Assembly (NCBI RefSeq): GCF_013167455.1
Contig: NZ_CP038328.1
Source: Escherichia coli O157:H7
GTDB lineage: Bacteria > Pseudomonadota > Gammaproteobacteria > Enterobacterales > Enterobacteriaceae
Strand: one strand, 5' to 3'
Length of the DNA stretch: 64,000 bases
The notes beneath the pieces are model-generated. The model was not told the origin of the DNA. It searched no databases and saw only the letters and a program-made list of their open reading frames with translations. Positions 40,471 through 63,645 of the stretch are shown piece by piece. Position 1 is the stretch's first letter; every line of letters begins with the position of its first letter. Position numbers and translations under genes: made by a program.

Positions 40471-41559
40471 ATGCCTCACAATCCTATCCGCGTGGTCGTC
40501 GGCCCGGCTAACTACTTTTCACATCCAGGAAGTTTCAATCACCTGCACGATTTTTTCACTGATGAACAACTTTCTCGCGCGGTGTGGATCTACGGCGTAC
40601 GCGCCATTGCTGCGGCGCAAACCAAACTTCCGCCAGCGTTTGGACTTCCAGGGGCAAAGCATATTTTGTTTCGTGGTCATTGCAGCGAAAGCGATGTACA
40701 GCAACTGGCGGCTGAGTCCGGTGACGATCGCAGCGTGGTGATTGGCGTCGGCGGCGGCGCACTACTCGACACCGCGAAAGCCCTCGCCCGCCGTCTCGGT
40801 CTGCCATTTGTTGCCGCTCCAACGATCGCCGCCACCTGCGCCGCCTGGACACCGCTCTCCGTCTGGTATAACGATGCCGGACAGGCGCTGCATTATGAGA
40901 TTTTCGACGACGCCAATTTTATGGTGCTGGTGGAACCGGAGATTATCCTCAATGCGCCGCAACAATATCTGCTGGCGGGGATCGGTGATACGCTGGCGAA
41001 ATGGTATGAAGCGGTGGTGCTGGCTCCGCAACCAGAAACGTTGCCGCTAACCGTGCGACTGGGGATCAATAATGCTCAGGCCATTCGCGACGTCTTGTTA
41101 AACAGTAGCGAACAGGCGCTTGCCGATCAGCAAAATCAGCAGTTAACGCAATCATTTTGCGATGTGGTGGATGCCATTATTGCTGGTGGTGGGATGGTCG
41201 GTGGTCTGGGCGATCGTTTTACGCGTGTAGCGGCGGCCCATGCCGTACATAACGGTCTGACTGTCCTGCCACAAACCGAGAAGTTTCTCCACGGCACCAA
41301 AGTCGCCTACGGAATTCTGGTGCAAAGCGCCTTGCTGGGTCAGGATGATGTGCTGGCGCAATTAACCGGGGCGTATCAGCGTTTTCATCTGCCGACTACG
41401 CTGGCGGAGCTGGAAGTGGATATCAATAATCAGGCGGAGATCGATAAAGTGATTGCCCACACCTTGCGCCCGGTGGAGTCCATTCATTACCTGCCAGTCA
41501 CGCTGACACCAGATACGTTGCGTGCAGCGTTCGAAAAAGTGGAATCGTTTAAAGCCTGA
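40471..41559 (+). CDS. ybdH: iron-containing alcohol dehydrogenase family (hydroxycarboxylate dehydrogenase)
   Basis: 362 aa ORF; Fe-ADH/glycerol-dehydrogenase-like Gly motif (GVGGGALLDTAKA). Confidence 0.88.
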   Translation: MPHNPIRVVVGPANYFSHPGSFNHLHDFFTDEQLSRAVWIYGVRAIAAAQTKLPPAFGLPGAKHILFRGHCSESDVQQLAAESGDDRSVVIGVGGGALLDTAKALARRLGLPFVAAPTIAATCAAWTPLSVWYNDAGQALHYEIFDDANFMVLVEPEIILNAPQQYLLAGIGDTLAKWYEAVVLAPQPETLPLTVRLGINNAQAIRDVLLNSSEQALADQQNQQLTQSFCDVVDAIIAGGGMVGGLGDRFTRVAAAHAVHNGLTVLPQTEKFLHGTKVAYGILVQSALLGQDDVLAQLTGAYQRFHLPTTLAELEVDINNQAEIDKVIAHTLRPVESIHYLPVTLTPDTLRAAFEKVESFKA

Positions 41560-41568
41560 CGTGCAAAT

Positions 41569-41766
41569 TTAGCAGCAGCGCGCGCCGCCTTTTCCACCGT
41601 AGCGCGCGTCCTGCCGCTCACGGAAAAACTCTTCGTAGGTCATCGGCGTTTGATCGGGATGGTTAACCCGCATATGTTCGACATAGTTGTCGTAATCAGG
41701 CATACCAATCATCAGCTTCGCCGCCTGACCTAAATATTTTCCGGCTTTTGCCAGTGAATCAAACAT
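41569..41766 (-). CDS. ybdD: DUF466 small protein, co-oriented downstream partner of cstA
   Basis: 65 aa ORF downstream of cstA on the same strand, recognised as YbdD. Confidence 0.85.
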
Positions 41767-41799
41767 CTTGGCCTCCGCTAACCATGTTGCTGAAAGAGT

Positions 41800-41833
41800 G
41801 CCGGATGCGGCGTGAACGCCTTATCCGGCCTAC
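41800..41833. repeat. REP (repetitive extragenic palindromic) element
   Basis: gccggatgcggcgtgaacgccttatccggcctac, canonical REP sequence, in the cstA-ybdD intergenic region. Confidence 0.85.
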
Positions 41834-41858
41834 AAATGCTATCAACGCGCTCGGTCAG

Positions 41859-41942
41859 CCCCCTCGCCCCATCGGGGAGAGGGTTAGGGTGAGGGGGAAC
41901 CCACGGCGCCATGCCAACATTCGCCAACATCCCCCCTCACTC
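41859..41942. repeat. GC-rich palindromic intergenic repeat adjacent to the REP
   Basis: ccccctcgccccatcggggagagggttagggtgaggggg ... cccccctcactc; nested inverted repeats (cccctcgcccc/ggggagaggg; gtgaggggg/ccccctcac); family not identified. Confidence 0.5.
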
Positions 41943-41947
41943 TGACT

Positions 41948-44053
41948 TTAGTGCGCGCCTTTTGCCTGCACCACGATCTCCTCGACATTTTCCGGCATTG
42001 GCTCATACGGCGTTTCTTTCGCCGTTGGCTTCGGCTCTTTCAATGCCGCAAGTGCCGTCTTAATCGAGAACAGTGCCAGAACCACCACGACCACCATAAA
42101 GAAGATGGTTAACCCGGCATCCAGACGGTTGTTGAACACCAGTTGCGCCAGCTGTGACTCAGTATACTGCGATGGAATATTACCGCTGTCGATCATTGCC
42201 TGGAACTTATTAGCAATGGCCAGGAAGCCGACTTTCGCATCCGGGCTAAACGCTTTCTGCCAGCCTGCGGTCAGGGTACAAATCAGCAGCCAGGCCGTTG
42301 GTACCAGCGCCACCCAGGCGTAACGTTGACGTTTCATCTTGAACAACACCACGGCACAGAGCATCAGCGCCATCCCTGCCAGCATCTGGTTGGCAATACC
42401 AAACAGCGGCCACAGAGTGTTAATACCGCCCAGCGGATCGACCACACCCTGATGCAGGAAGTAGCCCCACGCCAGCACGCACAGCGCCGTTGCCAGCAGG
42501 TTAGCAGGCAGTGAATCGGTCCGTTTCAGGCCCGGAGAAACCACGCCCAGCAGATCCTGCAACATAAAGCGCGCAGCACGCGTACCTGCATCCACCGCCG
42601 TCAGAATAAACAGAGCTTCAAACAGAATGGCGAAGTGATACCAGAACGCCACATCCATCATGCCGCCCAGCGCGCCATGCAGAATGTAGGCCATCCCCAC
42701 CGCCAACGTCGGCGCACCGCCCGCACGGGAAATGATCGACTGTTCTCCCACTTCGCTGGCAATCTGGTTGAGCGTATCCGGAGTAATCGCAAAGCCCCAG
42801 CTACTCACCACTTGCGCGGCAGAAGCGACCACATCCGCCGTCCCTGCCGGAGCCAGCACCGCCATCGGGCTGTTCATGGCGAAGTACACGCCCGGATCGA
42901 TGATACAGGCGGAAACCAGTGCCATAATCGCCACGAAGGATTCCATTAACATTCCACCGTAGCCGATAAAACAAGCCTGCCCTTCGTTCGCCAGCATCTT
43001 CGGCGTGGTGCCGGAAGAGATCAGCGCATGGAAGCCAGACACCGCGCCACAGGCGATGGTGATAAACAGGAACGGGAACAGGTTACCGGTCCATACCGGG
43101 CCAGTGCCGTCAACAAATTTGGTCAACGCAGGCATGGTCAGCGTCGGGCGCATAATCAAAATGCCTACCGCCAGACCAACGATCGTCCCGATTTTCAGGA
43201 AGGTAGAGAGGTAGTCACGCGGAGCCAGCAGCAACCATACCGGCAGCACCGCCGCCACAAAACCGTAACCCACCAGCATCCAGGTCAGCTGCACGCCGGT
43301 AAAGTCAAAGTACGGTGCCCAGGTCGGACTTTCTGCCACCCAGCCGCCAGAAATAATGGCGAAAATCAGGAATACCAGACCGATGACCGACACTTCACCA
43401 ATACGCCCCGGACGCAGATAGCGCAGGTAGATCCCCATGAACAGCGCCAGCGGAATGGTGAACGCAACGGTATACGTTCCCCACGGGCTATGAGTCAGGG
43501 CTTTCACCACGATCATCGCCAGTACTGCAAGGATAATGACCATGATCATAAAGCAGGCCACCAGCGCGATCACCCCGGCGGTTGGCCCCATCTCTTCTTT
43601 GACCAGCTCACCCAGCGAACGACCGTCACGGCGCGTAGAAACAAACAGCACCATGAAATCCTGCACCGCACCGGCGAGAACCACCCCGGCGAGTAGCCAG
43701 ATCATCCCTGGCAGGTAACCCATTTGCGCCGCCAGTACCGGCCCAACCAACGGACCTGCTCCGGCAATGGCCGCAAAATGGTGACCGAACAGCACTTTCT
43801 TGTCCGTCGGCACATAGTCCAGCCCGTCGTTATGGCGCACCGCTGGCGTCATACGCGTCGGGTCAACCGCCAGCACATTTTTGGCGATATACAGACCATA
43901 AAAACGGTAAGCGATCAGATAGATACAGACCGACGCCACCACAATCCACAGCGCGTTGATCTGTTCCCCACGATTTAAAGCAATATATCCCAGAGCAAAT
44001 GCTCCCATTACAGAGAGCACTGTCCAGACGAGGTATTTCCCTGATTTGTTCAT
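41948..44053 (-). CDS. cstA: carbon starvation protein A (peptide/pyruvate transporter)
   Basis: 701 aa polytopic membrane ORF recognised as CstA. Confidence 0.95.
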   Translation of the reverse strand: MNKSGKYLVWTVLSVMGAFALGYIALNRGEQINALWIVVASVCIYLIAYRFYGLYIAKNVLAVDPTRMTPAVRHNDGLDYVPTDKKVLFGHHFAAIAGAGPLVGPVLAAQMGYLPGMIWLLAGVVLAGAVQDFMVLFVSTRRDGRSLGELVKEEMGPTAGVIALVACFMIMVIILAVLAMIVVKALTHSPWGTYTVAFTIPLALFMGIYLRYLRPGRIGEVSVIGLVFLIFAIISGGWVAESPTWAPYFDFTGVQLTWMLVGYGFVAAVLPVWLLLAPRDYLSTFLKIGTIVGLAVGILIMRPTLTMPALTKFVDGTGPVWTGNLFPFLFITIACGAVSGFHALISSGTTPKMLANEGQACFIGYGGMLMESFVAIMALVSACIIDPGVYFAMNSPMAVLAPAGTADVVASAAQVVSSWGFAITPDTLNQIASEVGEQSIISRAGGAPTLAVGMAYILHGALGGMMDVAFWYHFAILFEALFILTAVDAGTRAARFMLQDLLGVVSPGLKRTDSLPANLLATALCVLAWGYFLHQGVVDPLGGINTLWPLFGIANQMLAGMALMLCAVVLFKMKRQRYAWVALVPTAWLLICTLTAGWQKAFSPDAKVGFLAIANKFQAMIDSGNIPSQYTESQLAQLVFNNRLDAGLTIFFMVVVVVLALFSIKTALAALKEPKPTAKETPYEPMPENVEEIVVQAKGAH

Positions 44054-63545: not shown

Positions 63546-63645
63546 TGCCGGATGCGGCGTGAACGCCTTATCCGGCCTACAAAAATCTTGCCAATTCAAT
63601 ATATTGCAGGACCATGTAGGCCTGATAAGCGTAGCGCATCAGGCA
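63546..63645. repeat. pair of inverted REP elements (BIME-like) downstream of fepA
   Basis: tgccggatgcggcgtgaacgccttatccggcctac and inverted copy gtaggcctgataagcgtagcgcatcaggca about 35 nt apart. Confidence 0.85.

Follow-up and report, generated by a model that had tools for sequence, protein, structure and literature searches.

A BoxC element and a single REP between cstA and ybdD of Escherichia coli O157:H7 as candidate interchangeable hairpins at the 3' end of cstA mRNA

REP elements are recognised by a GTAG/CTAC tetranucleotide at one end as their defining feature, and the element between malE and malF serves as an intercistronic REP stabiliser. Besides the REPs, E. coli harbors a dispersed G/C-rich repeat which has been described under several names. 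The TMECO pattern with its A and B types was equated with BoxC and PIT elements (Holder et al., 2015, NAR; PMC4666352), and individual E. coli strains carry between 1 and 29 TMECOs, while a function has not been found in 30 years of research (PMC4666352). The same sequences feature a G-quadruplex motif termed HPG1, and Table 1 of the respective study lists the copy at cstA>>>ybdD as HPG1 no. 19, at K-12 position 632058 on the minus strand (Kaplan et al., 2016, NAR; PMC5100583). On the level of RNA, stem-loops devoid of a U-tract were found directly upstream of steady-state 3' ends and were interpreted as shielding the RNA against PNPase and RNase II (Dar and Sorek, 2018; PMC6061677). The genes on both sides of the repeats considered here encode proteins that work together, CstA and YbdD both being required for constitutive pyruvate uptake (PMC5847655).

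The window analyzed here is a stretch of 64,000 nucleotides of E. coli O157:H7 (assembly GCF_013167455.1, contig NZ_CP038328.1), to which all positions refer unless K-12 is named. ORF coordinates and sequence confirmed the original prediction of a 181-nt spacer between the co-oriented genes cstA and ybdD (41767..41947, minus strand), and the region proved to be 100% identical in several O157:H7 chromosomes. The following features are of relevance:

40471..41559, plus strand: hcxA, convergent with ybdD; its read-through RNA would carry G-rich REP and BoxC
41569..41766, minus strand: ybdD, downstream gene, encoding the 65-aa partner of CstA
41767..41799, minus strand: ybdD leader of 33 nt with Shine-Dalgarno sequence
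41772..41776, minus strand: ybdD Shine-Dalgarno GGAGG, invariant columns in all alleles aligned
41800..41833, plus strand: single REP of 34 nt, GCCGGATGCGGCGTGAACGCCTTATCCGGCCTAC, with CTAC at its plus-strand 3' end (41830..41833)
about 41843..41899, plus strand: BoxC at full length, i.e., the core together with a family-conserved flank of about 18 nt
41850..41947, minus strand: predicted 98-nt RNA domain, from the cstA stop codon to the equivalent of a K-12 Term-seq 3' end
41861..41895, plus strand: TMECO/PIT core, type A with one mismatch, CCCTCGCCC-CATCG-GGGAGAGGG-TTA-GGGTGAGGG
41875..41895, plus strand: HPG1 G-quadruplex motif of 21 nt, GGGAGAGGGTTAGGGTGAGGG, identical to the HPG1 core of PMC5100583
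41883..41946, minus strand: predicted hairpin A, in which the G-rich arm 41932..41946 pairs with the outer BoxC C-block 41883..41897
41948..44053, minus strand: cstA, upstream gene, encoding a pyruvate/peptide transporter

Likewise predicted were a canonical REP (41800..41833) and a second, G/C-rich element containing nested inverted repeats; both were recovered, the former by its palindrome, an aligned Rfam REP hairpin and an identical copy within the window, the latter by a match to the TMECO pattern and by two nested inverted repeats, I3 (41859-69 with 41887-97) and I1 (41883-97 with 41932-46). The proposed order, REP followed by the G/C-rich element, holds in window coordinates but is reversed on the transcript, where BoxC precedes the REP. 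Similarly, two repeat elements are indeed present, but the spacer is not "almost entirely repeat", as dispersed-repeat families cover about 91 of its 181 nt (REP 34 nt, BoxC about 57 nt) and positions 41900..41946 comprise a locus-specific hairpin arm and loop outside of these families. Read along the cstA transcript, a G-rich arm (AGUCAGAGUGAGGGGGG), which is specific to Escherichia, lies directly past the UAA stop and is followed by a loop, the C-rich block with the BoxC hairpin and its tail, the REP, which is located 15 nt beyond the BoxC domain, and finally the ybdD leader. The C-rich block runs into a short hairpin, CCCCCUCACCCUAACCCUCUCCCC-GAU-GGGGCGAGGGGG, and then into the tail CUGACCGAGCGCGUUGA.

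It is near certain that the G/C-rich element is BoxC, and thus the PIT element, a TMECO of type A-mm and the HPG1 G-quadruplex motif in one, and that the other element is a single REP. The TMECO pattern, CCCTCNCCC-N3-6-GGGNGAGGG-N3-GGGNGAGGG, gave one exact match (41861..41895) and none in shuffled sequences. Alignment with eight other copies from K-12 revealed 35 invariant columns, located in the core and in the final bases of the flank, besides an additional flank consensus, CG.GC.CGGACGGT, common to the BoxC copies. Accordingly, the element shares pattern, core and the flank of about 18 nt with the described family, and it is likewise intergenic and multi-copy: a 93-nt BoxC query matched in 5,017 of 5,426 E. 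coli genomes, the median number of places per genome being 14, and O157:H7 genomes have nine such places. No structural difference from the family was found, with the one peculiarity that the outer C-block at cstA–ybdD doubles as the 3' arm in a hairpin specific to this locus. BoxC has its G-rich strand on the plus strand of the window and hence on the template strand of cstA and ybdD. At a permissive threshold, Rfam returned further matches to mir-423, the antizyme frameshift element and HDV, which were dismissed as chance, and no RNA family was assigned. The cstA–ybdD copy does not occur among the 23 TMECOs in Table 1 of Holder et al. (PMC4666352), because the K-12 copy (NC_000913.3, 632050..632090) is degenerate: its third G-block is altered (GGGTGAGAGGG), so that the TMECO pattern no longer matches. 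The copy of O157:H7, in contrast, is intact.

The REP, which we take to be of the Y-type, is an imperfect palindrome whose inverted-repeat arms (I2, 14 nt) are 86% complementary. It resembles its family in length, terminal CTAC, extragenic position and the occurrence of identical copies elsewhere, one of which is found in the same window (63547..63580, plus strand; 0 expected in shuffled sequences). It differs from the REP clusters, or BIMEs, as the spacer holds just one REP and no BIME pair. The Rfam model naRNA4 (RF02564) aligned to the REP hairpin with 38.2 bits (E 4e-5), below the gathering score of 59.5; of the two REPs in the model just one hairpin is matched, and the element was not counted as a member. 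In a genome search with a 701-nt query, in which the REP segment alone was also matched, the matching places amounted to a median of at least 37 per E. coli genome, a part of them being BoxC matches. A REP also adjoins a BoxC inside the operon at the pstA–pstB spacer (K-12 3908395..3908630), there in the opposite relative orientation, so that the pairing of REP and BoxC is not a fixed composite. Both repeats are thus already known, and the BoxC copy at cstA–ybdD is already catalogued in the literature.

A comparison of strains for presence or absence of the repeat block had been suggested together with the original prediction; carried out with junction-specific queries against 5,426 complete E. 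coli genomes, it revealed four states. BoxC and REP occur together in 3,695 genomes (junction of BoxC tail and REP), BoxC alone in 249 (BoxC tail joined straight to the ybdD leader), REP alone in 134 (hairpin A joined straight to REP, the BoxC core being absent) and neither repeat in 1,189 (112-nt form), while about 159 genomes fall outside these four junction classes. Accordingly, REP, BoxC or both are missing in about 29% or more of the complete E. coli genomes, and neither element is therefore required. At least eight length alleles were distinguished (182, 181, 175, 172, 153, 133, 127, and 112 nt). Only the G-rich arm past the stop codon (alignment columns 11-27) and the Shine-Dalgarno sequence are invariant across all alleles examined. 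The 112-nt allele keeps the BoxC tail without the core and still folds into two predicted hairpins, the second of which (AGCCCTCT…GGAGGGCATTTGTA) sits where other alleles have the REP and resembles the hairpin of Citrobacter and Salmonella at the same spot. Hairpin A and REP without BoxC were also encountered in Escherichia albertii, E. whittamii and two other Escherichia representatives, and with such outgroups no single order of insertions and deletions was found to fit the four alleles. Further polymorphisms include a 6-nt deletion in the core and a 10-nt tandem duplication in the loop of hairpin A (GCCAACATTC / GCCAACATCC, 41913..41932, plus strand), which is present or absent by strain, as seen from a 10-nt gap in the 172-, 133-, and 127-nt alleles, and which is consistent with replication slippage.

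The allele comparison also bears on the idea of a hidden small protein encoded through the repeats. A sense ORF of 50 aa (41778..41930, minus strand) ends beside the ybdD Shine-Dalgarno sequence and is open in the window as well as in K-12. Its start codon, frame and length vary among alleles, however, and the 10-nt indel shortens it to three codons, while the 112- and 133-nt alleles do not have it at all; moreover, stop-free frames are to be expected in G/C-rich repeats. A frame that is not conserved among E. coli alleles makes such a protein scarcely credible, and the candidate was rejected. Stop-free ORFs through the repeats are found on both strands, as a frame of 65 aa extends over 41748..41945 (plus strand) besides the minus-strand one, with peptides such as GERVRVRG and PHPNPLP. 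Neither frame is conserved among alleles, and ORFs of this kind are likely to give rise to spurious gene calls, so that annotation pipelines should skip them.

The sense RNA of the whole spacer is predicted to fold better than shuffled sequences (z -3.3). Hairpin A, whose arms (I1, 15 nt) are 87% complementary, is supported by minimum-free-energy structures, and its 5' arm begins 2 nt past the cstA UAA. For the 98-nt domain a fold of -55.1 kcal/mol was calculated (z -3.57), in which GUCAG (41946..41942) pairs with CUGAC (41858..41854) to form an outer stem around both hairpin A and the BoxC hairpin, with 4 unpaired nt remaining as a 3' tail. The REP follows as the second hairpin met by the cstA transcript (-21.1 kcal/mol, z -4.5). 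A scan of 41400..42300 returned no hairpin-plus-U site on either strand and a promoter scan of the spacer no sigma-70-like promoter; the spacer was accordingly rejected as a canonical intrinsic terminator or a ybdD promoter. Earlier reporter tests on PIT/BoxC, in so far as they are summarised by Holder et al. (2015; PMC4666352), gave neither terminator nor promoter activity.

A stem in such proximity to the stop codon might act on translation instead of RNA decay. Liang, Rudd and Deutscher reportedly described in 2015 that REPs within 15 nt of stop codons stall terminating ribosomes and reduce output. By analogy, a stem starting 2-7 nt past the cstA stop could stall terminating ribosomes and lower the output of CstA, and, the Shine-Dalgarno sequence aside, no part of the spacer but the 5' arm of hairpin A is unchanged in every allele. 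The effect was published for REPs, however, and the REP of the spacer is located more than 110 nt from the cstA stop, which leaves this explanation very improbable.

Mapped transcript ends in K-12 point to the BoxC domain. The original prediction, according to which extragenic palindromes may act on the operon mRNA, had named 3'-end mapping as a check and the lack of 3' ends at the repeats as an argument against it. A curated Term-seq 3' end does exist at K-12 632098 on the plus strand, classed as "orphan", with 1,686 reads in the sheet for LB at an OD600 of about 2.0 (Adams et al., 2021, supplementary file 1), a weak peak that was listed in one of three conditions and belongs to K-12, not to O157:H7. 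It is located 84 nt upstream of ybdD (Adams et al., 2021, supplementary file 3). Mapped onto NC_000913.3, the RNA ends with …GGGGACUGACCGAG-3', 10 nt past the BoxC hairpin, and the equivalent position in the window is 41850, i.e., 4 nt past the base of the predicted -55 kcal/mol domain, which is 1 nt shorter in O157:H7 than the corresponding stretch of K-12 and differs by several substitutions. Searching the same supplement with the BoxC core yielded a second BoxC with a 3' end, at K-12 624567 (minus strand; 50,300 reads, M63) downstream of fepB, where the RNA features BoxC in the same C-rich orientation and ends 11 nt past the hairpin. The K-12 supplement of Adams et al. (2021) gives no 3' end for the REP or for the region behind ybdD, and the TERMITe supplements hold no entry for cstA or ybdD. 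The prediction is thus partly supported, as the palindromes are transcribed, a 3' end lies within the spacer of K-12 and a hairpin at this position is nearly universal in Enterobacteriaceae, but the end occurs at the BoxC domain and none is listed at the REP. The tuning of YbdD relative to CstA that had been proposed is a hypothetical effect.

In K-12, a U-less stable stem-loop therefore lies directly 5' of a mapped end within a multi-gene unit, and the lack of a U-tract terminator or promoter in the spacer fits the class of protective stem-loops described by Dar and Sorek (2018). The difference from the described intercistronic REP stabilisers is that the protecting element at cstA would be the BoxC domain and not the REP. 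By equivalence with K-12, a protective 3' stem-loop may also be assumed for the window of O157:H7, on the basis of its sequence.

The same element has mainly been studied as a DNA structure, and a triplex or G-quadruplex of the G-rich template strand could be thought to block polymerases or, mainly, to promote local genome instability. CD and NMR demonstrated that TMECO forms a triplex in vitro, and variation at TMECO loci exceeds that at control intergenic sites (PMC4666352), while a switch between G4, hairpin and duplex was shown in vitro for HPG2 and a terminator role was proposed for in-operon copies (PMC5100583). The spacer is, moreover, unusually polymorphic, with its eight or more length alleles, the tandem duplication and the core deletion. 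Nevertheless, in vivo DMS footprinting gave no support for a stable triplex, and earlier tests, as far as they are recounted in the same article, found no effect on RNA polymerase (PMC4666352). Since RNA ends occur at a fixed offset from an RNA hairpin at two loci, an explanation at the RNA level is simpler, and an effect through DNA structure appears distinctly unlikely.

Another explanation assigns the block to the opposite strand, where it would end or protect read-through from hcxA and limit antisense transcription into cstA. The stop codons of hcxA and ybdD are only 9 nt apart (41560..41568) and no terminator-like site is found there, so that hcxA read-through probably crosses ybdD and the repeats; for the resulting antisense RNA, a G-rich hairpin or G4 of high stability is predicted (-26.3 kcal/mol, z -2.9), and the literature lists ybdD–hcxA as a convergent excludon. 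A Rho termination region was reported at K-12 631994 (minus strand), antisense to the end of cstA and just past the repeats, but this coordinate is of low resolution (800-nt windows), and no minus-strand Term-seq 3' end is listed for K-12 6319xx–6324xx. Such a role is unlikely, and it would be compatible with a function on the cstA transcript.

The position between both genes was further compared with one genome per species in the Enterobacteriaceae, which yielded 80 ybdD loci, and the cstA–ybdD spacer was delimited in 77 of them. Three of these species exhibit spacers of 14-20 nt without a hairpin, which implies co-transcription of cstA and ybdD. The remaining 74 have spacers of 47-195 nt (mode 55-63) with a median fold of -25 kcal/mol and a median z of -3.3, z being below -2 in 62 of them. 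The hairpins in this slot are not homologous to each other and fall into classes of unrelated sequence: 20 of the 74 are plain CCCTCTCC/GGAGAGGG stems, in many cases with a T-run behind them, 14 are REPs of the local type, 13 are TMECO singles or inverted pairs in both orientations, and 27 are of other kinds. TMECO-type occupants were found in Enterobacter, Leclercia, Lelliottia, Pluralibacter, Phytobacter, Cedecea, and Pseudocitrobacter. At two loci, in Leclercia adecarboxylata and a "Bacillota bacterium" MAG, a local-type REP is combined with a TMECO in an independent composite, the REP coming first and thus in the reverse order of E. coli. The scan also returned enterobacterial ybdD loci from assemblies assigned to unrelated phyla, namely Streptomyces sp. 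DH24 (a 465-nt contig, 98% identity) and the said "Bacillota bacterium" MAG (89% identity), which are probably due to contamination or mis-binning. Likewise, the paralogous transporter/small-protein pair btsT–yjiX of K-12 features the same gene architecture with a strong GC hairpin in the spacer, but this spacer has only 49 nt and comprises one terminator-like hairpin followed by a U-rich tail, without dispersed repeats. Judged by predicted folds, what is conserved between the transporter gene and the gene of the small partner is the presence of a strong stem-loop rather than a particular repeat.

This distribution is of importance for the main alternative, according to which REP and BoxC are neutral or selfish filler in a permissive gap and the Term-seq end is a by-product of any stable hairpin. 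The segregation of four presence/absence states in E. coli, in addition to the 172-, 175-, and 133-nt variants, would be expected from filler, as would the degenerate K-12 copy that no longer matches the TMECO pattern, and the strongly varying TMECO numbers and the long search for a function (PMC4666352) point in the same direction. A strong hairpin is, however, retained in 74 of the 77 species as well as in the paralogous btsT–yjiX operon, and the E. coli alleles without the repeats carry another hairpin. The persistence of a hairpin without the repeats argues for selection on structure and not on these particular elements, and we consider filler possible but rather doubtful.

The mechanism favored here starts from the cstA transcript, which carries the C-rich version of BoxC and whose first 98 nt past the stop would fold into a closed two-hairpin domain. 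This domain might define the 3' end by halting 3'-to-5' exonucleases, or possibly mark a non-canonical termination point, and a stable cstA-only mRNA ending a few nt past the domain would result. Translation of ybdD would then solely proceed from transcripts that extend through the spacer, and as both CstA and YbdD are needed for constitutive pyruvate uptake, some read-through must occur. The REP may represent a second, redundant hairpin barrier of the same generic kind. The elements would be interchangeable, E. coli strains filling the slot with BoxC and REP, BoxC, REP or an older simple hairpin, and the mechanism, deduced from K-12, would extend to O157:H7. Any such effect is dispensable, given the 1,189 of 5,426 genomes devoid of both repeats and the three species with hairpin-less spacers of 14-20 nt. 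A strong or specific role is also disfavored by the weak Term-seq peak in a single condition, by the reporter tests on PIT elements and by the absence of one or both repeats from about 29% of the genomes. The entire reading, i.e., the identity of the spacer elements together with an interchangeable, exonuclease-blocking structure that defines the 3' end of cstA mRNA and leaves ybdD to read-through, is on balance somewhat probable, while the mechanistic part by itself might equally well hold or fail. In any case, the block is better read as a generic interchangeable intercistronic hairpin than as a REP-specific regulatory device.

As a discovery, the finding is ordinary, since it concerns two long-known repeats of E. 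coli and a BoxC copy that had already been tabulated. Mildly new are the tie of BoxC hairpins to transcript 3' ends at the RNA level and the recurrent occupation of the slot. The natural allelic series of BoxC with REP, BoxC, REP, and neither in a two-gene transporter unit offers a ready test of repeat effects. It is a tentative and rather speculative thought that BoxC in its C-rich orientation represents a portable module for mRNA 3' ends and stability, and that the slot is selected for such a structure, which would set the amount of transcript reaching ybdD. Selection of this kind would explain the repeated recruitment of BoxC singles and inverted pairs, REPs and CCCTCTCC/GGAGAGGG hairpins across genera, and recruitment may, for instance, have proceeded by homology-driven conversion of a hairpin that was already present. 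For a repeat that has been without an accepted function for about 30 years (PMC4666352) and has chiefly attracted attention as a DNA structure, the occurrence of an RNA 3' end at a fixed offset from the BoxC hairpin at two loci hints at a role on the level of RNA.
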